Under the pieces are notes generated by a model. That model saw nothing but the letters and a program-made list of their open reading frames with translations, did not search any database and had not been told where the DNA came from. Position numbers and translations under genes: made by a program. DNA of 61,796 nucleotides, the filler included, from Candidatus Woesearchaeota archaeon (GTDB lineage: Archaea; Nanobdellota; Nanobdellia; Woesearchaeales; GCA-2685855): assembly GCA_002685855.1 (NCBI GenBank). It is 6 parts of 6 records of this genome, joined end to end, with 100 filler letters (N's around TTAATTAATTAA, not from the genome) between each part and the next. Parts side by side here need not be neighbours in the genome. Positions count along the whole stretch, not along the records: positions 45,663 to 54,508 come from NYYS01000020.1; 5 more parts are not named here. One strand, given 5' to 3'. Each line of letters opens with the position of its first letter. The stretch's first letter is position 1. This document shows positions 1 to 54,608 of this stretch, in pieces.

Positions 1-270
1 GGGATTAGTGCGTTGGGTACAGGGATTTATCTTGAGCAGGGAGTAAGTCCTTTGTTTATTGTTGTTGCAGCTTTTCTAATTATAATATTCAGAGATGCTG
101 TTGGTGTACGGAAGTCTGCGGGCGAGCATGGAGAAGCATTGAATAAGATTGTGAATAAGCTCAATCTGAAGATTTCTCATCTGGATGAGGTGGTTGGTCA
201 TACGTTTGTTGAGGCTTCTGGCGGGTTGTTGATTGGGATTGGGCTTGCGTTGATTGTGTATGCTTTGTAG
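1..270 (+). CDS. Divergent PAP2 family (DUF212-like) membrane protein, 5' partial
   Basis: Motifs IIFRDAVGVR..AGEH and EVVGHT..E...G; gene begins before the window. Confidence 0.75.
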   Translation, partial: GISALGTGIYLEQGVSPLFIVVAAFLIIIFRDAVGVRKSAGEHGEALNKIVNKLNLKISHLDEVVGHTFVEASGGLLIGIGLALIVYAL

Positions 271-330
271 AATGAATTAAGGGGCTTTGGCGTTATATCG
301 AGACAATGTCATAAAGGGGCAGAATTAGGA

Positions 331-629
331 TTATGAAAATCTTAGATTAAGATATTTCTTTAGAGCTTTTTTACTATGCTTGTAAACAATATCATGATGT
401 TCATAATCAACAAAATAAACTGTTCCATCCTCACCAAAAAATAAAATTACATAAGAATTATTAATATGAACTCGCTTAAATCTTTTTAGAGACTTTGTTA
501 GATTTTTATAATGATCTAGATCTTCGGATAAAAGAATTTCATCCACTTTATTCCAAATATTCTGAAGCTCTCGGCCTTGAGTTTTTTAGGCTGCTTTCTA
601 AAAAGATGACTATACTTTCTTTTTCTCAC
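331..629 (-). pseudogene. RelE/ParE-like addiction module toxin with a 1-nt frameshift near 580-590
   Basis: GTG at 629 overlaps the antitoxin stop (GTGA). Reads MRKRKYSHLFRKQPKKL, then shifts to QGRELQNIWNKVDEIL..HYKNL..KRVHINNSYVILF..DYEHHD. Span is 299 nt, one short of in-frame. Confidence 0.65.
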
Positions 630-6611: not shown

Positions 6612-7175
6612 ATGACGGCAAGTACCGAAGAAGTACGTGATCTGGAGATCGTTCGGATCGGGATTTTAACCCCCTATCTGTTTGATGATGTGAGAGATCG
6701 CTGTGATGAAGAGTATATTAAGGACCAAGAGGAGCGGTATGGGTATGATCGGGATAATCTGATTCAGGTTCCCCAGATGATAACGAGCAGGCACAGAGTC
6801 CTGATCGAGACACCTGATAATTGTGCAGGACCTTCTGGGTTTCCACAATTAGTGATACATGGGTCTACACGGCCTGCAGAAGAAAGGGTTGAGAGCATAA
6901 AGGGATCAGGCATTGTTGTTGCCAGATACAGCATCTTCTATGGTGGACCAAGCCATTATTCTGGAAGCTATCCTGAAGATGCAGGGTATGCGTTGGATAT
7001 CCCAAAGAGTCCGGATCTTGTGCGTAGTTTACTGACGCATGAAGGTTTCCTGGATGGGCTTGTTTCACGCGAAGAAGGAAAGATACGGTCTGCGCTTGAA
7101 GAGTTTGGAAGCGGTCTGGAAGAGCCTGTGCTTGTAACGCCCTACTTAACTGAGGCTTTGGCGGTTCAGAGGTGA
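6612..7175 (+). CDS. Hypothetical protein
   Basis: 187-aa ORF; stop overlaps the next start (GTGA). Confidence 0.6.
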   Translation: MTASTEEVRDLEIVRIGILTPYLFDDVRDRCDEEYIKDQEERYGYDRDNLIQVPQMITSRHRVLIETPDNCAGPSGFPQLVIHGSTRPAEERVESIKGSGIVVARYSIFYGGPSHYSGSYPEDAGYALDIPKSPDLVRSLLTHEGFLDGLVSREEGKIRSALEEFGSGLEEPVLVTPYLTEALAVQR

Positions 7176-7744
7176 TAAGGATGGAAGACGAATGTCCAAT
7201 GGAGCGTTTTTTGCGTGCAATGAACAGCCCTACCGGCTTTATGAAGCCGGGAGAGAAGTTTAGCACCGCATCTGCACGGCTTAGAGCTAAAGGAGGTCTT
7301 CGGGCCTTTTTTGCTCCTGGTGTCGGATTTGAAGATTTCAATGAAGGAGTTTTTTGTAAGTATCTCCTTGTTGTTGAGCCTGATAGTGGTTTGAGAAGGG
7401 AGATTCTCTCCTCATTTGAGGAGTCTGTCTTTGACTGTTATGGTGCAGGAACGTTCGAGGATGCAAAGAGGGTTCTCGATGTAGACAGAAAACTGGACTA
7501 CCTTGTTGTTGCAGACAGGTTTCCTCAAAGTAGAGGAGGAGTGCCTGAGGCTTTAGCTGACAGGTTGGTTGTACATGCACGCGAGCATTCACCGATTGAA
7601 CGTCCAAACCTTCGCTGTTTTGGCTTTGTGGAGTCCGAGTCAGGTTTGAGTGTGCCTTATCGAGGAATTATTCGAAAAGGTGAGTCAGGTGTTCGTGATC
7701 TCTATGATATGTTGATTGCGGATTCAGAAGGTGGTGCAGATTAA
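7172..7744 (+). CDS. Hypothetical protein with a degenerate C-terminal receiver-like domain
   Basis: LLVVEPDSGLRREI...CYGAGTFEDAKRVL...LDYLVVAD..P resembles REC beta1-beta3. Confidence 0.55.
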   Translation: MIRMEDECPMERFLRAMNSPTGFMKPGEKFSTASARLRAKGGLRAFFAPGVGFEDFNEGVFCKYLLVVEPDSGLRREILSSFEESVFDCYGAGTFEDAKRVLDVDRKLDYLVVADRFPQSRGGVPEALADRLVVHAREHSPIERPNLRCFGFVESESGLSVPYRGIIRKGESGVRDLYDMLIADSEGGAD

Positions 7745-7931: not shown

Positions 7932-8031
7932 NNNNNNNNNNNNNNNNNNNNNNNNNNNNNNNNNNNNNNNNNNNNTTAATTAATTAANNNNNNNNNNNNN
8001 NNNNNNNNNNNNNNNNNNNNNNNNNNNNNNN
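7932..8031. other. Artificial contig spacer
   Basis: N44 + TTAATTAATTAA (stops in all six frames) + N44. Confidence 0.97.
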
Positions 8032-16250: not shown

Positions 16251-16931
16251 ATAAACCTCTCCTCACAAATTGGGAGAAAGGTGGGAAGAGAGATTACAGG
16301 ACTGCATCCTATAATGGACGCTCATCTTCTTTCTGGAGACAGAGTTGCCTCTACTCTTTTCCCTGTTTCCACAGCAGGAAATACAATAACCATACGAAGA
16401 TTTGCACGGAATCCCTGGACAATTACAACCCTAATAGCAAACAATACTCTCTCAAAAGAGATGGCTGCGTTCATATGGCTGGCAATGCACTATGAAATGA
16501 ACATCCTGGTTGCAGGAGGAACAGCATCAGGAAAAACATCTATGTTATCAGCAATATCCGGATTGCTGCCAACCAATCAAAGAGTTATTTCAATAGAAGA
16601 CACAAGAGAAATCACTCTTCCTGAAGAACTGGAATGGAACTGGGTCCCTCTTACAACAAGAAACCCAAACCCTGAAGGCCAGGGAGAAGTCACCATGCTG
16701 GACCTGATCGTGAGCTCATTACGCATGCGTCCAGACAGGATTATAGCGGGAGAAGTCAGAAGAAAAGCACAGGCAGAAACCATGTTTGAAGCAATGCATA
16801 CAGGTCATAGTGTATACACCACAATTCACGCAGACACAGTTGAACAAGTAAAAAGAAGGAAAACCCAAATACGGATTCAGATACTCTCCAATAATAGTAA
16901 TAGGGAGTCTGGTAATATTTTTTATCTGTAG
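16251..16931 (+). pseudogene. Internal fragment of a type II/IV secretion (CpaF/VirB11-like) pilus ATPase
   Basis: Walker A GGTASGKT, IEDTRE, LRMRPDRIIAGEVR, AMHTGH. Lacks the N-terminal half; similarity ends at ..VEQVKRR (~16860). Confidence 0.8.
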
Positions 16932-17031
16932 ATACGTGATTGGTAACTTTTTTGAAGGATTAATATAAAGAGGAGAAATGAAAAAGTTTATATGTTGAGC
17001 AACCTAAAATAGTAAAAAACAGGTGATTTTC

Positions 17032-17496
17032 ATGAAACTGCAAAAAAAAGCCCAAGGCGCAACAGAATATCTAATAATTCTTGCAATAGTAATCATAATA
17101 GCACTAATCGTTGTAGGTGCAATGGGGGGTATACCAGGTATCGGAACAGGAGCACGGTCAAGAGCATCTTCCTCGTTCTGGCAGACAGCTGATATCGCAA
17201 TACCTGCATATGCAGTAACAGCGTCTAACGATGATATGGTGTTAGATGTAAGGAACAATCTTAGAAACAGCATCTCCTCACTCACAGTAACTGTTGATAG
17301 TGATTCGGCAACGTGTTCACAAACAAGCCTTTCTGCAGGACAGGTGGCGAACTGTACTATCACAGATGTTACATCATGCGCTGCAGGAGACGCGTTTAGT
17401 TTTGCAGTAAGCATAACCTACACAGACGACGAAACATCTGCAGCTTATACCTATACAGGCGAAGGCCATAACCTTGATGGTAAGTGTGCCACATAA
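17032..17496 (+). CDS. Archaeal type IV pilin-like protein (class III signal peptide)
   Basis: KKAQG/ATEYLIILAIVIIIALIVV cleavage motif with Glu and hydrophobic helix. Confidence 0.9.
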   Translation: MKLQKKAQGATEYLIILAIVIIIALIVVGAMGGIPGIGTGARSRASSSFWQTADIAIPAYAVTASNDDMVLDVRNNLRNSISSLTVTVDSDSATCSQTSLSAGQVANCTITDVTSCAAGDAFSFAVSITYTDDETSAAYTYTGEGHNLDGKCAT

Positions 17497-21263: not shown

Positions 21264-21363
21264 NNNNNNNNNNNNNNNNNNNNNNNNNNNNNNNNNNNNN
21301 NNNNNNNTTAATTAATTAANNNNNNNNNNNNNNNNNNNNNNNNNNNNNNNNNNNNNNNNNNNN
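21264..21363. other. Artificial contig spacer
   Basis: N44-TTAATTAATTAA-N44. Confidence 0.97.
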
Positions 21364-34221: not shown

Positions 34222-34321
34222 NNNNNNNNNNNNNNNNNNNNNNNNNNNNNNNNNNNNNNNNNNNNTTAATTAATTAANNNNNNNNNNNNNNNNNNNNNNN
34301 NNNNNNNNNNNNNNNNNNNNN
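34222..34321. other. Artificial contig spacer
   Basis: N44-TTAATTAATTAA-N44. Confidence 0.97.
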
Positions 34322-45562: not shown

Positions 45563-45662
45563 NNNNNNNNNNNNNNNNNNNNNNNNNNNNNNNNNNNNNN
45601 NNNNNNTTAATTAATTAANNNNNNNNNNNNNNNNNNNNNNNNNNNNNNNNNNNNNNNNNNNN
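45563..45662. other. Artificial contig spacer
   Basis: N44-TTAATTAATTAA-N44. Confidence 0.97.
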
Positions 45663-46136
45663 AGTAAACTCACTAACCTGAAAAGAAAAGGCAGGAACAT
45701 CTACATTCAGACTTTTTTCTAACAATTGTTTCAGGTTTTCCTTAGGGATGTGCTTTATTCGGGCAAGAGTAAGATGTGGCTTAAAAGAGTGGTCAGAAGG
45801 ATAATCAGAGAGTTTGGTTTCTATTGAAGAAGAGAGTTGCATAAGTTCAGGCACAGGCTCAACTCCCAGCCATAAGACGCGAGGATTCTGAACACTGGGA
45901 AACACCCCCATATGCGTTGTTTTAGTTTGAAAAGAGGAAAATGAGATCTGTGCTAAGCGGTCTTGGAGAAATGACATCTCTGTTTCACTCACATCACCTA
46001 AAAACTTGAGAGTCAGATGAATCGAACGCGAATTCAGGATAGCAAACCTGCCCAAGCGCAGGTCAATACCTTCTTGGATTTTTTTAATTCGTTCTTGAAG
46101 CTCCTTGGGAATATCTATTGCAAGAAATAAACGCAT
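45663..46136 (-). CDS. thpR: RNA 2',3'-cyclic phosphodiesterase (2H family), 3' truncated
   Basis: MRLFLAID, HLTLKFLG, PRVLW, FKPHLTLAR. Confidence 0.92.
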
Positions 46137-46183
46137 AAAGAAAAAAAAGAAAGAAAATATAAAAAATTTGTGGTTATGAAGCC

Positions 46184-46900
46184 TTATTCATCCTTTTTTG
46201 GCTTTTCTTCAGCTTCTTCTTCAGCAGGCGCTTCTGGTTCTTCTGCCGGAGCTTCAGCTGGAGCTTCAGACTCAGCTTCCTCAACAGGCTCTTCAACTTC
46301 AGGAGCAGGAGGAACTTCAGCTTCTGCTTCCTCAGCCGGAGCTTCAGCTTCAGGTTCTGCTTCCTCAGCAGGTGCTTCTGGTTCTTCTACTGGAACTTCA
46401 GGCTCTTCAACTTCAGGAGCAGGAGGAACTTCAGCCTCAGGCTCTTCCGCAGGAACTTCTTCAGCAGGTGCTTCTGGTTCTTCTACTGGAACTTCTTCAG
46501 CAGGCGCTTCAGACTCAGCTTCCTCAGCAGGAACTTCAGCTTCAACTTCTTCAGCAGGCTCATCTCCGAAGTCTTCTGTGTCCTTACTTGTATCAAAGGT
46601 TTCTTCTTGCTCAGCTGCTGCTGCAGCAGGTGCTGCATCATCTCGAGGAGCAGGTTTAGAACCCGCTTCAACAGGTCCTTTTGCATCGCCCATAAGCTCT
46701 GCAAAGGCTACCTTTCGCAAGACCTTTGTAACTCTAATGTGCACTTCATCTCCTTCTTTTACACCGGGAACAAAGAGGACAAATCCTTGCTTTCTGGCAA
46801 TACCATCGCCTTTTTCTCCCACTGCTTCTATTCGTACGTCTAATTCTTCACCTTCTGTAACAGGAGGTGTACTACTCTGATATGGTCTTCTATCCATCAT
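46184..46900 (-). CDS. TRAM-domain RNA-binding protein with a long acidic Glu/Ala/Pro repeat tail
   Basis: PPV.EGEE.DV.IE.VGEKGDGIA...GFVLFVPG...GD.V...KVAFAE; repetitive EEPEAPAEE tail. Confidence 0.88.
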   Translation of the reverse strand: MMDRRPYQSSTPPVTEGEELDVRIEAVGEKGDGIARKQGFVLFVPGVKEGDEVHIRVTKVLRKVAFAELMGDAKGPVEAGSKPAPRDDAAPAAAAAEQEETFDTSKDTEDFGDEPAEEVEAEVPAEEAESEAPAEEVPVEEPEAPAEEVPAEEPEAEVPPAPEVEEPEVPVEEPEAPAEEAEPEAEAPAEEAEAEVPPAPEVEEPVEEAESEAPAEAPAEEPEAPAEEEAEEKPKKDE

Positions 46901-47039
46901 ATTCTATTTCACCTTATTTTATTTTATGTGGGTTCGCTCTTTCGAGCTGTTCGATGGAAAGAAAGATTATTTATAAAGGTTCCCTATTAGAAGGGGTTAA
47001 AAGCTCGAAAAATAGATATAAAAAAAAAGAATAAAAAAA

Positions 47040-47975
47040 CTAGGTATCCCTCAAACAATCCTCTTCAACATAGAAAAGTGTTTCTCCATCAGGAAGGTTT
47101 GGACTGTCTACCAGTTTTGCTACACGGCTTCCCTTTTTTCCTTTTCTGAGATAGATTCTAAATGCAGAATTATGTCCTACAATGTGTCCGCCGATTGCCT
47201 CTGTTGGGTCGCCAAAGAACTGATCGGGTTTTGACATCACCTGGTTTGTGACATAGACTGCAACATTATAGTGGTCGGCAAGACTGCTTAATGTATGCAT
47301 GTGTTTGTTCAGCTTTTGCTGGCGTTCTGCAAGCGTTCCTCTTCCAACAAACTCTGCTCTGAAATGGGCAGTCAGGCTATCTACAATTACCAACTTTACA
47401 TTGTCTCCTTCTTTGACAATATCTACGATTTTTTCTGCGAGAAGCATCTGGTGGTCTGAGTTAAAAGCACGTCCCACTTTAATCTGTGCTAAGACCTGTT
47501 CGGGTTCAAGGCCCGCCCCTTTTGCAAACTGTGCAATACGTTCCGGTCTAAACGTGTTTTCTGTATCTATGAACACCACACGGCTTTCAGGATATTGTTT
47601 AATGCATTGAACTGCCAAAGAATGCGCGATCTGTGTTTTTGAACTACCATACTGACCAAAACATTCGGTAATGACGCCCGTCTCAAAACCTCCACCTAAG
47701 AGGGTGTCAAAGTTTTTGCTTCCTGTACTTATCCTGTGAACGTTTTCACGCTTCTCCATCATATCAGTTCCAGTAGAAAAGCCCATATTCATACTATCTC
47801 TTGCTGCATGGATAATCTTTCTTGCTGTAGCCTCGGTTACTCCGGAAGCTTCTACCAGCTGGCCGTTTGTGGCTACGGCGATAGAAAGGAGCGTGTCAAA
47901 GCCGGACATAATCAGTTTTTCTGCTGTTGCTGCACCCACACCGGGAAGATCCTGAATTGAAAGTTCGTCTGTCAT
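47040..47975 (-). CDS. radA: DNA repair and recombination protein RadA
   Basis: HhH LPGVG..TAEKL; GQYGSSKTQ, IDTENTFRPERI, VDSLTAHFRAE.GRG.LAERQ, R.AKLVDSP. Confidence 0.96.
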   Translation of the reverse strand: MTDELSIQDLPGVGAATAEKLIMSGFDTLLSIAVATNGQLVEASGVTEATARKIIHAARDSMNMGFSTGTDMMEKRENVHRISTGSKNFDTLLGGGFETGVITECFGQYGSSKTQIAHSLAVQCIKQYPESRVVFIDTENTFRPERIAQFAKGAGLEPEQVLAQIKVGRAFNSDHQMLLAEKIVDIVKEGDNVKLVIVDSLTAHFRAEFVGRGTLAERQQKLNKHMHTLSSLADHYNVAVYVTNQVMSKPDQFFGDPTEAIGGHIVGHNSAFRIYLRKGKKGSRVAKLVDSPNLPDGETLFYVEEDCLRDT

Positions 47976-48067
47976 ACATACTGCCTCTTGTTTCATAAGG
48001 GAACACCTCTTCATTTATTTATCTATCTACATCGATGAGCATACAATAAAAAAAAAAGAAAAAAAAA

Positions 48068-48358
48068 CTATGCGGACTCTTCTGCGATAGCATCGTCTCT
48101 TAGGGCAACATATTCATAGGCCTTATTGAGAACGAGAATCGCTTTAGGAAGGTCTGACGTTCGTAAAGAATGTGTATCCTTCCACTCATTATTTTTGTCC
48201 TTATAGCTTCTCCGGAGGCTAATTGTCTGAAACTGGACGGGGCTTCCGTCACGGGTTCCTTCATTGAGCCAGATCGTAGCCTCAATCGCTCCGGCCTTAA
48301 ACTTCTTCTGGGGATAGTTCTTCCCCATAATTTCCTGCACTGTTGGTGCTTCTTTCAT
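48068..48358 (-). CDS. Small conserved hypothetical protein, possibly ssDNA/RNA-binding (PC4-like)
   Basis: P.KKFKAG.I.ATIW.N...ISL.RSYKDK..EWK.T.SLR..DLPK; co-oriented upstream of radA. Confidence 0.65.
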   Translation of the reverse strand: MKEAPTVQEIMGKNYPQKKFKAGAIEATIWLNEGTRDGSPVQFQTISLRRSYKDKNNEWKDTHSLRTSDLPKAILVLNKAYEYVALRDDAIAEESA

Positions 48359-48448
48359 ATTTCCACCTCGCTTGCTTTTCGCTTTTTATTTCAAGCCTCC
48401 TTACCGGCTTGGCTTTGGAGACCGAGGTGTTACATCGTTGATGCAACA
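48359..48448 (-). ncRNA. Candidate structured 5' leader (cis-regulatory)
   Basis: Three stems, one pairing CACCUCG with the SD-containing CGAGGUG; TATA-like ATATAAAG at ~48468-75. Confidence 0.5.
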
Positions 48449-48544
48449 ATTAGGTTAATGCATACTCCTTTATATGCCTTGCGCGCGGTTGTCCAGTGAT
48501 CTTTCGGAAAAGGTGGAAATATTCTAACTATTCAGAATAAGAGC

Positions 48545-48994
48545 TCACAACCCGCCTTTTATAACCAAATAGCCGTTTGCAACCAGGAGAAACCAGAAAA
48601 AGACCATCTCTACCCAGCTTCCCACATGGATTTTTCCTTTAAGGTGCGGCAAAGGCCAGGTTTTTAGCCCTGCCTGCGTCAATAGATCCAGAAAAAGATG
48701 GCCCAGAAAGCCGACACCAAATCCCATAATATAGATCCCTTCGTGAAAGAGAAGATAAACAATCCACATACAAAGTCCCATCCAGACAATTGAATGGAAA
48801 AAGCCTCTGTGTTTGAAGATCCAGCCAATAAATTTTACCTTTCTCCCCAAGTAGCTATGCGGTTCGTCAATATCAGGAAAAAGCGAGGCAAAGAGCACAA
48901 TAAAAAGAAAACCAATAGGATTCCCAATATCAAAAAGTGTAAGCCCTAAAAGAGAGATGAATAATCCAAATACCAAATGGGTTTTTCCTAACAT
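48545..48994 (-). CDS. Membrane-bound metal-dependent hydrolase (YdjM-like)
   Basis: KTH, PDID, HRGFFHS, GHLFLD.LT..G. Confidence 0.88.
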   Translation of the reverse strand: MLGKTHLVFGLFISLLGLTLFDIGNPIGFLFIVLFASLFPDIDEPHSYLGRKVKFIGWIFKHRGFFHSIVWMGLCMWIVYLLFHEGIYIMGFGVGFLGHLFLDLLTQAGLKTWPLPHLKGKIHVGSWVEMVFFWFLLVANGYLVIKGGL

Positions 48995-49815
48995 TATATA
49001 AACTCAGGGAAGAGAAACACCTCTATATACGCTCCCAGGATCACCAAAACAATCGCTATAGTGAAGATAATAAAACCGTCATACATTACTCGTTGAAAGC
49101 GCTTACTCCCCAGCTTTTCTTTCAGGACAGCCTTACTAAGAATACCCCCTCCGATAATAGCAAGCAGGTAACTGCTTACTTCGACAACCGTATGAGGAAA
49201 GACCTGAATAAAGAGGTTCAAAAAGGCAAGAGGTACAGACTCATGGCTTACCTGGGCGGCCTGTTTTGCGATATAGCCAAAGATCGTTCCCCAGACAGAA
49301 GCATTCCATGTAAGGAAAAAGATAGCTCCTGCCCCGTAGACAAGGCTGAATACAAAGCTTACCAATAGAACTTTCATATTGTTGAGAAGAATGCCAAAAA
49401 AGTCAGGGAATAATAAATTTGATGCCTCCCCGGTTACTCCCACGAGTCTCAGTTGACTTTTAAATACATTAGCTACAGTGAGCTCATCCAGGATAAGACT
49501 AAAGATTGAATAGGTTATCATAATGCCCAAGAAGAGAAAGATATATGTTTGAAAGATATCCTGATGATTCCTATAAATTTGAGTAATAGTTGTTCTCTTG
49601 GCCTGCACCATCTGCCGTGTTTCTATGGTTAAAAGACGGTTTAGAGTAGGCAAAACCAGGACAGAGGTAAATGCAATACTCACAAGCCCTACACTCTGCG
49701 GAAAAACGATCATTGCAGAGATAATACCTATTGTGGCATAGAACATTCCTATAAGAAAGGAGACTTTCGGCTTTTTTTCTAAAAATGTTGGTTTAAAGAT
49801 CTGCTCAAACACCAT
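48994..49815 (-). CDS. SpoIIM-like membrane protein
   Basis: ILLNN.KV, LTWNASVWG, PH...E...Y, GAYIE. Confidence 0.8.
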   Translation of the reverse strand: MVFEQIFKPTFLEKKPKVSFLIGMFYATIGIISAMIVFPQSVGLVSIAFTSVLVLPTLNRLLTIETRQMVQAKRTTITQIYRNHQDIFQTYIFLFLGIMITYSIFSLILDELTVANVFKSQLRLVGVTGEASNLLFPDFFGILLNNMKVLLVSFVFSLVYGAGAIFFLTWNASVWGTIFGYIAKQAAQVSHESVPLAFLNLFIQVFPHTVVEVSSYLLAIIGGGILSKAVLKEKLGSKRFQRVMYDGFIIFTIAIVLVILGAYIEVFLFPEFI

Positions 49816-49877
49816 GCTTTTTTAGAAGAAAACTTATTTATAAAGGTTTTTAAAAGAAAAAGAAAAAAAATGCTCCC

Positions 49878-50207
49878 TTAGGAGCTATTTGAGTTATTAT
49901 ACTGGGCTTCCTCCACATTTGTCAGATTAGACCCATTATCAGACATAGACATCGAACCATTACTCCCATTAAACGGAGCCGCCACAACGTTAGTCAAATT
50001 AGACCCATTATCAGACATAGACATCGAACCATTACTCCTATTAAGGAAGGCTTTAATAACAGACTTATTTGTTTCATTCAAATTCTGCTTATCCAATAAT
50101 CTCTTTGCCTTTGCCTTATTAAAAGCCTCTCCTGCGGTGTTTTCTCCTGTACATGCTACAAGAAACACCAACACCACAAATCCTACAAACAAAATTGCTT
50201 TCTTCAT
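49878..50207 (-). CDS. Small lipoprotein with an internal tandem repeat
   Basis: Lipobox LVAC; GAGGTG SD; NGSMSMSDNGSNLTNV twice. Confidence 0.65.
   Translation of the reverse strand: MKKAILFVGFVVLVFLVACTGENTAGEAFNKAKAKRLLDKQNLNETNKSVIKAFLNRSNGSMSMSDNGSNLTNVVAAPFNGSNGSMSMSDNGSNLTNVEEAQYNNSNSS
49926..50038. repeat. Intragenic duplication: 41 identical bp at a 72-bp period
   Basis: 49926-49966 equals 49998-50038. Confidence 0.85.
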
Positions 50208-50421
50208 TCTTTTTCACCTCAAGTTTTTTGAATTCATTAGAGAATGTAAATAATTGAAATTGAGAAAAGTAGAGTAATCCATTCGTTTGACAACAATTAT
50301 TCATTCAGTCACCACACACATCACCCACAAAAGGTATATATTTTCCTATACTCAAGTAGAATTAGCTATTTAAAGTTTTATATACTCTAAAACAACCATT
50401 AGAAAACAAGGTATTTATAAA

Positions 50422-51774
50422 CTAGTCGTTCACCGACTCAAGATCATCAAGATTTACCAATTCTTCATCCAGTGCAAGATCGTCTTCAGGCTTTTTCTTA
50501 TCCTTTTCAAGCACAGCTTCAGCTTCTGGAACTGCTTCATTCTTTTCCTTGGCAATATCTGCTGCAGATTCCAAAACAGGCTCTTTCACAACCTCTTCCT
50601 TTAGCGATGTCGCTGCTTCCGCCTTGCTCTTTTCAACAGGATTTACCACAAGCTCTTCTTCTTTAGAATCAGTACTGGCTGCTTCCTTAGAGGCAATAGT
50701 CTCTTTTTCAACCACTTTCTCTTTCACAGAGAGTTCTTCCTTCTCCACAACAGCCTTCTCCTCTCCATCCGCACTCTTCACACTCTTCAGCTCTGCATCC
50801 AGCTTTGCAATCTCTGCAGAAGGATCGGGATCAAGAACAACACGATTTGCCACAAACTCCAATCGATCAAAGGCCTCATTCTTATTCGTTCTTCCCTGTA
50901 TCTTCACTATTCTTCCAAGTAAATCCGTTTTCACCCCTTCAAAAGCTGCGGGGTTATCCTTCATCCCCACTAACTCTTCATGGCTCTTCCCAAGCGATTG
51001 TTGTACCTGGTTTCTCCACAGCACAACACGAAGGTTGTGTGTTCCATCATCAACAAAAAGGTTCATCACATAGCCATAGTCTGGCCGGACACTATTATGC
51101 GCAGGACAGACAAAAACACCCTCTTTTTCCCGGGCACGTTTTCCACACTCTGGACAAACCTCAAAAAACTTTGGATCAAATATCTGGACAATGGTTGCTA
51201 ATATTTCTACATCCTGGTCCTGCTCCGTGAGTTCATTCAACTTCTTTCGGGTAATTCCTGTCTGAACCTGGATAGACTCAACCCCGTCGGGGTTGACAAC
51301 AAATGTGCTGTTATCATTCAGGTGAATCTCTACCTTACCATTATTGTCCTTGCTGTAGGCACTCTTCACCTTTACCATATCACCTTCTTTTACTTCGTTG
51401 ATCTTCTCTGCCTGTGAGTTCCAGAGAGCTACCCTGATCTGGCCTGTCTCATCTGCCAATACACAGGTTGCGATCTTTCCCTGGCCCCGCTCGGTTTGAA
51501 ATTCCCGAACATCATAGATCTGTGCAACCTTTCCTACAAGTTCCACATTTCTCATGCCTGCCAGGACATTCTTGATCTGGAGTTTGCCAGAGAATGTCTC
51601 TTCAAAAAGCTTCACTCCCAGTTCATTAGCAATAATATGCGCTGCTCCTTCTTCAGATACTAGGCCGGAAAGTGCATCCAGCTTCTCATTGATTTTTGAA
51701 GTGAGCTCCTCGTCAGAAATTCCTGCTTTCTCCTGAATCTTTACCTTGATATCTGCTAATGGTAGTTTTAACAT
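50422..51774 (-). CDS. rpa: Replication protein A (OB folds, Zn finger, acidic tail)
   Basis: GLVSEEGAAHIIA, ADETGQIRVALW, CPECGKR..CPAH, DDGT. Confidence 0.88.
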   Translation of the reverse strand: MLKLPLADIKVKIQEKAGISDEELTSKINEKLDALSGLVSEEGAAHIIANELGVKLFEETFSGKLQIKNVLAGMRNVELVGKVAQIYDVREFQTERGQGKIATCVLADETGQIRVALWNSQAEKINEVKEGDMVKVKSAYSKDNNGKVEIHLNDNSTFVVNPDGVESIQVQTGITRKKLNELTEQDQDVEILATIVQIFDPKFFEVCPECGKRAREKEGVFVCPAHNSVRPDYGYVMNLFVDDGTHNLRVVLWRNQVQQSLGKSHEELVGMKDNPAAFEGVKTDLLGRIVKIQGRTNKNEAFDRLEFVANRVVLDPDPSAEIAKLDAELKSVKSADGEEKAVVEKEELSVKEKVVEKETIASKEAASTDSKEEELVVNPVEKSKAEAATSLKEEVVKEPVLESAADIAKEKNEAVPEAEAVLEKDKKKPEDDLALDEELVNLDDLESVND

Positions 51775-51885
51775 CCCTTTTACCCTCCAATAACGTGAGC
51801 AGAGTGTTCTATTTAAGGTTTATTGTTCTTTAGAAAAGAGGTTTCCCTGTGCCCATTTAAAGACAGAACTATTCCAACCCCTCCC

Positions 51886-54508
51886 CTATATGAGCTTCAA
51901 ATCCACTTCGAGATAGGTCTTTCCTGACTCGAAAAGAAAGGGAGTGATCTGATTGTCATAGTCATCTATCCCGTTCACAGAGAAATAATAGTTTTCATAG
52001 GTGGAGGGAACCTCTGTCAGATAGTAGTAGGTACTGACCGATTCATCAAAATAAAGTGTGTCCAGATATGCCGGCTCCTGCATGCCGTCAGCAGTCATCA
52101 CACAGTCAAAGTCGAACTTTCCAAGAAGGTCCGGAAGATTAAGAGGACTACACATCATGTGTCCGATCGAAGCTCTTGCCTCCCGATACTGTTTCTTCTT
52201 AAAGACAGCTACCGCTCCCATGCCCTGAATTGTTGTTTCATCCATTCCCAGGAAGGGAGCATAATGACCAATAATCCGGTATTCAAACACATCGGTTGCC
52301 ATATCTTTCCATTGGAGCTGAATAACCTTGTTTGCAGGCGGCGGCAGAGGGGTAAACTCTGAAAAATCCAAAGTTAAGACAGATGACGAAAGGTAGAGTG
52401 GATCTTCAGGTGGCTGGATATCTTCCAGCCAGACAGAAAACTTAAGTTCAAGAGAAACTTCAGAAAAATCAGATCCCGTCTGAACAAGCTCTGTTTCGCC
52501 TGTATCATAACAGAGAGAATACTTTCTTTTTGGCTTTTTACAAAGCTGATAGTTGCCCGTATCATAACAGAGATTATCCTCGCATTTCAGTTCATAGCCC
52601 GCATCATCTTTATACTCTTTAACATACACAACACCACCTTCTTCTTTAAACAGATTAATCGTGTCATAGGGCTCCCATTCTTTATCTCCACCCCATTCTG
52701 CCAGGTGAAGCATTCTCTTTTTAAGGTCTCCATCATCATACTCAACATTGATGGTTACATATTCATACTCTTTAGATGTTTCTTCCAATTCTTCCTTTGT
52801 CAGAATACCTTCCTGCGCTTCAGAGAGAGGATAACCAGACACACCTAATTCCGGTTTTTCTAATTCAAGTGCGCCCTTTGCCCAGTGTTTCAACTTTGTT
52901 GTTTCCTCTTCCTGACTTGGATCAAGCTCGATCTGACAGAAGCAGTTTACCTGCGCATTTTCCGTGCAGTCAGTATATTTCTCCACATACTCATAGAACA
53001 GAAGCGATTCTCCACAATCCCGCGACAGATTTCTTTCATTCTCTTCATTAAACTCCGCTATCTTCTGATTCAAGCAATATTCTGTTTTATCATCGCACTC
53101 TTCTACAACCCCCTTCATAAATGCAACCATTTTATCAAATTGGTCCAGGTCATTCTCAATAGCCGCCGATGCAGAAGGAGTGAAACTATAGCTTCCAAAA
53201 CTTTTTATTTCGCCATAGCCCCCTGCACAGGGATCCATACCCCGGGAAACACCTCTATTATAGTGACCTACCCAACGGCTGATGTGATCGCCGGTGCTTA
53301 CCATATGCCACTTATTCTTATCTGTTTTTCTTAGGCTTCCTGCATTGTATACTGCTGCCACCTTTGGCGGATCAAAGTTGTGGCTGCCGCTCTTCTCTGA
53401 AATAAGCTTTGCCATTAATTCTATGCTTTTCTGTTCATCATACAACTCATCCGGAGCGCCCCGAAACCCCAGACCCCATGCAGTGGTGTAGAGCAGGTGA
53501 GCCATTCCATAACTGCAACTTGTCCCTGCAAATTCCTTTGTTCGGGATCCGTCCTGCTCAGGTTTGCAGCTGCTTCCTCCATAATCGTCCGGAATGCAGT
53601 AGAGAGGGAGTTCACACCCAAACGGGTGGCAGGGATGCTTTCCTGGTTTAAACTTACTTTCAAGACTGTCCTCACAACGATTACTTTCCGGATTAAGATT
53701 CACGTCCTCAGTACACAGGTTTGCTGCAAGGATCAACATAGGAACACCGTATGCCTCAGAAGCTGCCTGAAGAACAGTTCCATACTCTTCGGTAACCTTT
53801 ACAACACAGTCTGAACTACTTGCAGGTTCTAAAGAAAAGCTTCCCCCCTGTTTTGTTGCTATACCTTGCGCAGTCAATTTCCATTCCACACCACCCTTAT
53901 AGTTATGAGGCTGCCCCAACTCAGGATCACAAACACCTTCGAGTTGTGGAGGAAGATCCTCATCAGGAACGATCTCTTCTCCCCCATCACCCATCGAAGC
54001 TCTGGCTCGTTGTTCTATATCGTCCAGATCAAGAAGAGGCCCGGGATCCGGCTTCTCAGACTTTACATCTGTATGACTGAAAAGAGTATCTCCGGAAAGA
54101 GAAATTTCATTTCGTTCTCCAATATCTGCAACAAGCTTTACCAGACTATCAATCTGAGTTTCTGTAAACGTTTGATAACAGGTTGACTCAATCAGCTTCC
54201 CCTTCTCCTCATCACCACATTCAAGATCACAAACCCCTCCCTTTACACAATCACTTCCCAGGTTCACAAGAGATATCCCAATACTCCGCGCATTCATCCC
54301 AGTAATTGTACATTTCCCACTACCACACCCTCCTGCATGCTGCGCTGCCTCTGACTCTTTCACATGCTGGGTGACAGAGCCATCCCGTTCAATGATATAG
54401 TGGTAGGACAAACCCCGCTCACGCAGGGTTTGGAGCGTGGTTTCTCTGCTTCGGTCAGCAGTCCAATGAAGCACAACTGCATCAATTGCTTTTCCTCCCC
54501 GGGAAAGA
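51886..54508 (-). CDS. Multidomain peptidoglycan hydrolase: Amidase_2 + SLT-type lytic transglycosylase + long Cys-containing C-terminal region, 5' truncated
   Basis: IDAVVLHWT, SYHYII.RDG, QHAG, NARSIGISLV, TE.QI.SL, SHTD...KPDPG; then AASEAYGV....AA...TE, SYGMAHL, AAVYNAG. Confidence 0.85.
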
Positions 54509-54608
54509 NNNNNNNNNNNNNNNNNNNNNNNNNNNNNNNNNNNNNNNNNNNNTTAATTAATTAANNNNNNNNNNNNNNNNNNNNNNNNNNNNNNNNNNNN
54601 NNNNNNNN
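54509..54608. other. Artificial contig spacer
   Basis: N44-TTAATTAATTAA-N44. Confidence 0.97.

Follow-up and report, generated by a model that had tools for sequence, protein, structure and literature searches.

What would an archaeon do with a protein that carries two enzymes against bacterial cell walls? How DPANN archaea attach to or exploit other cells is largely unknown, and whether some of them live on bacteria instead of archaea is an open question, for which published murein hydrolase genes of Woesearchaeota provide hints of predation. The locus considered here lies in a 61.8-kb stretch of DNA (the window) from a draft genome of a Candidatus Woesearchaeota archaeon and encodes a large murein hydrolase, a concrete candidate tool for archaeal contact with, or breaching of, bacteria. 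The hydrolase gene is the last of a conserved pilin-like operon beside the gene for the ssDNA-binding protein RPA, and wall-cutting heads are swapped among its relatives. Our preferred reading, to which we assign a probability of about 0.62, is that of a surface-anchored bifunctional murein hydrolase that would sit in a complex with its pilin-like neighbors and cut the walls of contacted bacteria. The first-pass annotation of this gene is partly supported: its proposal of a wall-breaching tool against bacteria agrees with the failure to find a Mur ligase and with the surface-type build described below, remains inferential, and had already been published as a general idea. The most informative feature of the locus went unnoticed there: the front end resembles a pilin, and the operon, also pilin-like, is conserved.

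As we picture it, the protein would consist, from front to end, of a prepilin-like signal with a hydrophobic helix, an N-domain, a zinc-dependent N-acetylmuramoyl-L-alanine (MurNAc-L-Ala) amidase, an SLT/GH23-like transglycosylase, a disulfide-rich stalk and an Fn3-like domain. It would be exported and held on the cell surface by its N-terminal helix, where it would join a complex with the products of the neighboring pilin-like genes. In bacteria touched by the archaeon, glycan strands and peptide stems of the murein would then be cut alike, so that the bacterial wall would be opened locally for attachment, feeding or killing.

The window is not a single molecule; it is a chain of separate contigs of one draft assembly (953 kb, 66 contigs, completeness 94%, contamination 0.86%), and adjacency across its linkers therefore carries no meaning. 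Contig C20, which corresponds to window positions 45663-54508, carries the hydrolase gene on the minus strand, with a stop codon at 51886-51888 and a reading frame that stays open through 54508. This position is the true contig end, the linker beginning at 54509, so the N-terminus of the hydrolase is absent from the window. The guess that this N-terminus may hold a membrane anchor and further domains was right, and the missing piece was found on contig C8 of the same genome. Queried by tblastn with 11 complete proteins of the family, the hydrolase among them, and with stretches of 90-216 residues from the N-termini of four full-length relatives, the genome gave a single other match, at C8 ~21-590 (minus strand), which continues past the first base of the contig. 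The open reading frame (ORF) at this place (L002:3-620, minus strand, 3' end open) encodes 206 amino acids (aa) that start MRRSKKRNKKGYVPILPLGIVAVAFVIL, and its leader, MRRSKKRNKKG-YVPILPLGIVAVAFVILVAAFV, consists of basic residues followed by a hydrophobic helix. Its N-domain contains a Cys-Trp-Cys-Pro pattern that is invariant in 12 of 12 sequences, and the conserved N-domain is common to family members whatever catalytic head they bear. The C8 piece terminates in ...AEFIPLSAH and the C20 piece opens with LSRGGKAIDAVVLHWT; relatives read across the junction as ...FIPANPNHYLPNRDGGIDTIVIHYT. Because 2 bases are left over on C8 and 1 on C20, the frame is kept in a direct join or in one that adds 3n bases, and synteny in related loci further supports the connection. 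The full hydrolase would be a surface protein of ~1,080 aa whose gene is split over C8 and C20.

Nine more genes lie upstream on C8, tightly packed on the same strand and encoding products of 188, 167, 297, 472, 205, 98, 707, 85 and 85 aa. The operon proteins on C8 all open with a few basic residues, a Gly or Ala (often with Gln) and ~20 hydrophobic residues, and a loose prepilin-like rule, which also picks up ordinary signal peptides, selects 6 of the 8 script-called C8 genes against 81 of the 1076 ORFs of the genome. Outside the window, C37:3267-7644 carries homologues of the start of the corresponding cluster in a related genome, G173 (~1,100 aa, 162 aa and 329 aa), with their order kept up to the contig end; the pilin-like cluster is thus spread over at least C37, C8 and C20. 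The two 85-aa proteins (L002:7332-7589 and 7064-7321) each combine a prepilin-like helix with a small Cys-rich knot. One of them has 272 relatives, the named ones being called 'hypothetical', 'uncharacterized membrane protein' or 'DUF948 domain-containing', and the protein-atlas clusters of the pair hold 357 and 1,377 unnamed members, 98-99% from Archaea and mostly from Woesearchaeota. These small proteins are candidates for the bulk subunit of the structure built by the operon.

Conservation of this arrangement was followed in 15 loci around the best matches to the C-terminal module of the hydrolase (C-module; see below) in other genomes of the same order. Searches that started from the hydrolase itself were uninformative: a word-index search with the whole fragment as query returned only the self-match, and a related-loci search with the hydrolase protein alone gave 25 stretches that fit the pattern, none of which was a relative. 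An RPA homologue adjoins the hydrolase-family gene in 12 of the 15 loci, co-directional and downstream in 10, as here, and on the opposite strand in 2; it is absent in two further loci, and one locus stops at a contig end. Moreover, at least one homologue of another C8 operon gene is found upstream in 14 of the 15. The recurrence of the RPA adjacency excludes a misassembly between RPA and the hydrolase, a concern raised at first pass. The slot itself is occupied by differing catalytic heads: SLT in six loci, Amidase_2 in two, Amidase_2 with SLT in one (the 1025-aa protein of genome G271), M23 in three (one of them scoring below the cut-off) and NlpC/P60 with a weak glucosaminidase match in one, with no recognizable catalytic head found in the remaining two slot genes. 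Head and C-module are encoded by two adjacent genes in 3 of the 15 loci, with their order kept.

Further support for a scaffold built from several subunits comes from structure prediction. For the complex, only soluble parts were modeled, those of the N-domain and its candidate partner, the 188-aa upstream protein, with one alignment for each, and the interface score (ipSAE) was 0.74 against 0.16 for the best control. Of 157 solved pairs, 116 attained this mark, against 2 of 215 mismatched ones; these counts are only approximate here, given the use of our own alignments. Model runs share at least 77% of their contacts, the partner has a predicted local distance difference test score (pLDDT) of at least 67, and the predicted interface runs along N-domain residues 51-81, with 140-147 also taking part; on the partner it involves residues 47-62, 75-79 and 157-170. 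We know of no similar solved complex. We take the model as support for contact between the N-domain and the product of the upstream gene, and with it for a multi-subunit assembly. The N-terminus of the hydrolase also follows the prepilin pattern in its basic leader, Gly/Ala and ~20 hydrophobic residues at the extreme N-terminus, and the motif [KR][GAS]Q stands ahead of the N-terminal helix in 10 of 21 family members. Elsewhere, the genome carries a Peptidase_A24 prepilin peptidase on C64, four matches to the T2SSE ATPase and two to the T2SSF platform protein (T2SSF on C28).

At the catalytic end, the amidase that the first-pass annotation recognized, with its expected zinc ligands, is borne out. 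Pfam Amidase_2 (PF01510) matches the fragment with E 1.6e-24 and 87.1 bits against a cut-off of 26, over profile positions 2-131 of 131, and the genome-level scan of the hydrolase gave 91.5 bits. The motifs VLHWT, SHTD and KPDPG are all present and line up with the corresponding motifs of AmpDh2, the nearest solved protein to the amidase domain (E 3.5e-8), which places His14, His145 and Asp154 at positions that we take to be those of the zinc ligands. Six Amidase_2 domains were aligned, namely those of the hydrolase, of four family relatives and of a second amidase encoded on C12 of the same genome. Both putative zinc-binding His residues and the Tyr of 'HY' (SYHY) are kept in all six; Lys-x-Asp (with the Lys of EKPD) is kept in all five family domains, and the C12 amidase has Arg and Cys there. 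This second protein (C12:1082-2329, outside the window; 415 aa, E 4.4e-16) has a repetitive C-terminal half and a twin-arginine-like leader (NRRKALIG...); the Glu is retained in its 'SIGIE' motif, and its Asp ligand is replaced by Cys.

The second catalytic domain, an SLT-type transglycosylase, had been called from its motifs, which stand where they were placed at first pass. Its relationship to SLT proteins holds as well, and its own Pfam SLT (PF01464) score does not reach the cut-off of 21.3, with 15.5 bits (E 0.013) and 17.2 bits. We assign the domain nonetheless, because relatives pass Pfam SLT and a profile built with them reaches solved transglycosylases. An exhaustive phmmer search of 1.84 billion representatives, for which residues 190-873 served as query, found 272 matches at E<=0.001, of which 35 lay at E<=1e-10, and proteins passing Pfam SLT were met at E 4.5e-26 to 1e-10. 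Pfam, applied to 30 of the 150 listed matches, found SLT in 23 (22 above the cut-off), only M23 in 2 and nothing in 5. The query was then aligned with 11 short relatives, all of them phmmer matches in the SLT part and six of them confirmed by Pfam: all 12 sequences carry, without variation, the Glu of 'TE(S/D)' (Glu267 here), Ser-x-Gly, Tyr-Asn-Ala-Gly and a GxxQ-like motif. The resulting profile matched the solved lytic transglycosylases MltC (5.1e-9), Slt70 (2.1e-7) and MltE (4.6e-6), the Glu267 column falling on 'TES' of MltC, and also reached phage T7 gp16 (E 0.0044). The SLT-like region alone gave 0 phmmer matches at E<=10 against the PDB. In a low-confidence protein-atlas model (predicted template modeling score, pTM, 0.33), the nearest neighbors of residues 230-439 are SLT clusters, with template modeling (TM) scores up to 0.82 by target, a lead only. 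The region additionally has a conserved leader ('GGVxW.LT') and a ~35-residue Cys-rich insertion between motifs I and II. Taken together, a divergent SLT-type lytic transglycosylase is confirmed indirectly, by homology.

The remainder of the fragment forms the C-module. The ~450 residues of acidic, Cys-containing sequence described at first pass correspond to the last 433 residues, with an isoelectric point of 4.26 and 12 Cys. Pfam found no match in residues 470-873, and the module is common to 20 of the 149 other stored phmmer matches, on which the catalytic parts include SLT, M23, M23 with SLT and NlpC/P60 with SLT. Six Cys are invariant in an alignment of nine C-module sequences. In an AlphaFold model (pLDDT 67.5, pTM 0.57) the module opens with three helices and continues in beta-sandwiches; Foldseek with this model matched only chains of several Fn3 domains (best E 1.9e-4, TM 0.14-0.17), with no match for the helical, Cys-rich first third. 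Comparison by VIA gave Z 6.0-7.1 to dozens of FnIII domains for model residues 262-429, with a root-mean-square deviation of 2.4-3.5 over 84-96 residues, and Pfam fn3 is found in relatives (G350 protein, 3.1e-8), not in the hydrolase itself. We read the C-module as a disulfide-braced stalk. With 28 Cys in the 873-aa fragment and invariant pairs among them, the sequence fits an extracellular protein, as had been guessed, and the architecture is likewise of the surface type. A C-module profile matched 157 of 401 genomes in a sample of the phylum, or 113 of 281 genera, ~70 of the 157 at E<=1e-10 (counted from the table); the weak end of these matches may take in unrelated Fn3 proteins, and the top matches are partly circular, because the nine profile rows come from such genomes (G173, for example, is the genome of P0007). 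Three of the 157 genomes (G244, G322 and G395) are unpublished.

Several observations weigh against the preferred reading, and they concern the join, the front end and the two catalytic domains. The junction of C8 and C20 is inferred rather than sequenced: the public contigs likewise break off at 54508 and show no loose end there, coverage being ~5 in the best public run, and no k-mers (21-55) common to the C20 end and any other contig were found. As for the front end, no significant Pfam or NCBIfam family, pilin families included, was obtained for the N-terminal piece or for the nine other C8 operon proteins. PF07790 had no matches in the genome, and PF04021 (Class_IIIsignal) matched only C17:9013-9081, a different gene; the pilin and class III signal models are short and have low sensitivity. 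Directly behind 'KKG', at +1, stands Tyr, presumably not a residue that the FlaFind rule expects. The model of the N-domain is mediocre (pLDDT 65.8; helices 15-46 and 50-88 and a three-stranded sheet), Foldseek gave no match to it at E<=0.001 and no pilin, and VIA scored PilX at Z 4.5 and PilB at Z 4.1, with unrelated alpha/beta proteins up to Z 5.5. We give somewhat less than even odds to a true type IV filament as carrier, tipped by the hydrolase; the alternative is a static surface complex. We hold still more tentatively a broader proposal, in which a type IV-filament-like organelle would be lineage-wide and vertically inherited in Woesearchaeales, its operon fixed beside RPA and its modular 'pilin' cap bearing interchangeable murein-cutting heads; such a filament would carry the amidase and transglycosylase heads onto the bacterial sacculus and open it. 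One locus in the window looks like a canonical archaeal pilin locus, separate from the C8 cluster: at ~16359-17112 (C17:8328-9081), a T2SSE-type ATPase match is followed directly by the PF04021 gene (24.4 bits).

The missing pilin match at the N-terminus is also what a released, free-acting lysin or scavenger would show, one that kills bacteria or digests wall debris to release amino sugars and peptides; its neighbors would then be irrelevant and its N-terminal helix an ordinary signal or anchor. Secreted archaeal peptidoglycan hydrolases that kill bacteria are documented (PMC12352652). Within the present genome, the twin-arginine-like signal of the C12 protein makes soluble lysins plausible. 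A free lysin would, however, leave unexplained why the gene has a fixed place in related genomes, last in a pilin-like operon that is itself conserved, why the N-domain stays constant whichever catalytic head it bears, why it is predicted to bind the product of the upstream gene, and why the order is unchanged in the three loci with separate, adjacent head and C-module genes. We consider this explanation, and the ordinary signal or anchor that goes with it, unlikely.

The counterpoints from the catalytic domains bear on a different alternative, namely that the protein is an adhesin and not an enzyme, one or both domains being non-catalytic and binding murein in the manner of non-catalytic peptidoglycan recognition proteins (PGRPs), so as to hold the archaeon on the bacterium. 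The Glu of 'SIGIE', the general base of AmpD-type amidases, is replaced by Ser79 in the hydrolase and by Ser in the G271 protein, and is kept in the other four of the six aligned domains; the amidase may thus be slow, may work in the T7-lysozyme/PGRP way or may only bind. T7 lysozyme and PGRPs are not known to have this Glu and rely on Tyr and Lys, and both residues are present here. Because of the Ser, we call the amidase probably, and not certainly, active. The SLT domain, with its divergence, its Cys-rich insertion and its score under the Pfam cut-off, leaves similar room for an adhesin, and a long Fn3-type stalk is typical of adhesins. Set against this are the three zinc ligands, all kept together with Tyr and Lys, and the invariant Glu, GxxQ-like and YNAG motifs of the SLT domain. 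Furthermore, the slot in relatives bears other intact catalytic families (M23, NlpC/P60), which suggests selection for cutting and not for a single binding specificity. We regard an adhesin as less probable still than a free lysin.

A bacterial gene misbinned or misassembled into an archaeal genome, which might be suspected from two overwhelmingly bacterial catalytic families in a fragmented draft of low coverage, is rejected on synteny and has next to no chance of being correct: RadA (Rad51 family, E 1.2e-80) and RPA lie on the hydrolase's own contig, upholding the archaeal context noted at first pass, and the adjacency of hydrolase and RPA recurs in the 12 loci of other genomes. Remodeling of the cell's own wall or of pseudomurein was likewise rejected: Mur_ligase_M was not found in this genome (94% complete), so that the substrate of the enzyme is probably not made by its own cell.

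How does the proposed surface-anchored hydrolase relate to systems already described? Murein hydrolases of Woesearchaeota are already published in general form. Large lytic murein transglycosylases (GH23) were reported in five metagenome-assembled genomes of Woesearchaeota and read as predatory by Vigneron et al. (2022, PMC9723730), who cite an earlier Woesearchaeota case, AR20 (Castelle et al. 2015). These proteins share with the hydrolase the phylum, the SLT/GH23 domain, the large size and the inferred use against bacterial walls, but in the text available they are handled as CAZy hits, and an amidase fusion, an N-terminal scaffold, an operon or RPA synteny is not described; nor do 'pili' or 'pilin' occur in it. 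Strock et al. (2025, PLoS Biol, PMC12352652) subsequently counted peptidoglycan hydrolases in 175 of 3,706 genomes of archaea, described them as prominent and diverse in Nanoarchaeota, and interpreted them as anti-bacterial weapons. The likeness lies in bacterial-type wall hydrolase domains in archaea, whereas the enzymes tested there, according to the accessible text, were Tat-secreted, soluble and haloarchaeal, with a binding domain and one catalytic domain each. Signal scoring there covered Sec and Tat alone (32% of proteins), and 'pilin' and 'pili' are absent from that text; its S2 Table may list family members.

A precedent for the design is bacterial. Modular type IV pilins were defined with PilB and PilC of Streptococcus sanguinis (Raynaud et al. 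2021, PMC8179133), in which a small N-terminal pilin module carries grafted, interchangeable modules, a peptidase among them, at a proposed filament tip. The available text describes these pilins as bacterial, bearing the IPR012902 motif and shown in pili; in contrast, the hydrolase is archaeal, has no pilin model match and carries two murein hydrolases, and neither 'peptidoglycan' nor 'archaea' occurs in that text. Literature searches for Woesearchaeota pilins with transglycosylases or class III signal peptides returned no paper, and those on DPANN, pilins and peptidoglycan returned, judged by titles and abstract starts among the matches listed, none describing a pilin-scaffolded hydrolase.

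At the level of single domains, the amidase resembles AmpD/AmpDh2, T7 lysozyme and PGRP amidases in its full-length family match and kept His/His/Asp, and differs from the AmpD type in its Ser for Glu, its Cys-rich insertions and its fusion into a ~1,080-aa protein. The family-1 transglycosylases MltC, Slt70 and MltE (EmtA) are reached by a profile that contains the query, with its Glu on the 'TES' of MltC; compared with them, the hydrolase SLT is very divergent and sub-cut-off, and additionally has a sub-domain at its N-terminus and an insertion rich in Cys. For the proposed use, phage T7 gp16 offers a parallel, with several wall-cutting domains on a large protein brought in by a filament or tube and murein opened locally. 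The multi-domain VirB1-type hydrolases of Gram-positive conjugation are also machine-borne wall cutters. The hydrolase has no sequence relation to gp16 or VirB1-type proteins outside SLT, and in the present case an archaeon would supply the carrier and another organism the wall.

The contribution of this locus lies in its architecture: a murein hydrolase with two functions rides on a prepilin-like scaffold that is conserved, is encoded by the last gene of a pilin-like operon found across the order, and has swappable heads, its activity and display being predicted from sequence. The locus thereby gives a testable device: a two-headed surface protein, a conserved scaffold, a predicted partner with interface residues, and an operon present in many genomes. 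The exchange of SLT, M23, Amidase_2 and NlpC/P60 heads while the scaffold stays the same is reminiscent of the arms race of phage and secretion-system lysins and suggests adaptation to differing bacterial walls. If a filament with a hydrolase cap is indeed what the operon builds, it would be the first described archaeal contact-dependent device against bacteria, and would provide a mechanistic basis for cross-domain episymbiosis or predation between DPANN archaea and bacteria.

Table 1. Positions of the hydrolase gene, its domains and motifs, and other features in the window.
Feature	Window position	Strand	Basis or remark
Hydrolase gene, 3' part, 873 codons and stop	51886..54508	(-)	ORF open to contig end
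Amidase_2 domain, fragment residues 5-157	54037..54495	(-)	Pfam, AmpDh2 alignment, family alignment
Putative zinc ligand His14 (VLHWT)	54466-54468	(-)	Aligned to AmpDh2
Putative zinc ligand His145 (SHTD)	54073-54075	(-)	Aligned to AmpDh2
Putative zinc ligand Asp154 (KPDPG)	54046-54048	(-)	Aligned to AmpDh2
Leader sub-domain ('GGVEWKLT') and divergent SLT/GH23-like domain, residues ~192-440	53188..53934	(-)	Relatives, profile, motifs
Candidate catalytic Glu267 in LCTED	53707-53709	(-)	SLT alignment
SYGMAHL motif	53494-53514	(-)	SLT alignment
VYNAGS motif	53335-53352	(-)	SLT alignment
Family-specific C-module, residues 435-873	51889..53205	(-)	Invariant Cys in the three helices at its start; beta-sandwich domains behind them
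Fn3-like terminal domain, fragment residues ~696-863	51919..52422	(-)	VIA; fn3 in relatives
RPA-like ssDNA-binding protein (OB-fold)	50422..51774	(-)	Conserved downstream neighbor of hydrolase slot
Artificial N44-TTAATTAATTAA-N44 linkers, n=5	7932-8031, 21264-21363, 34222-34321, 45563-45662, 54509-54608	no strand	Not biological sequence

Two further observations concern the surroundings of the gene. A 158-nt contig from a marine metatranscriptome library (run X4) is identical to the amidase stretch 54181-54308, its first 29 letters mapping twice to the same place in the style of a fold-back artefact; the piece is single and short, DNA carry-over is possible, and we do not take it as expression. 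Downstream of RPA, at 48545-49815, lie genes for membrane proteins of the SpoIIM (E 3.7e-10) and YdjM (E 2.3e-23) families, and a small YdjM-like membrane gene seems to trail RPA in several of the related loci as well, as judged by eye from the N-termini.

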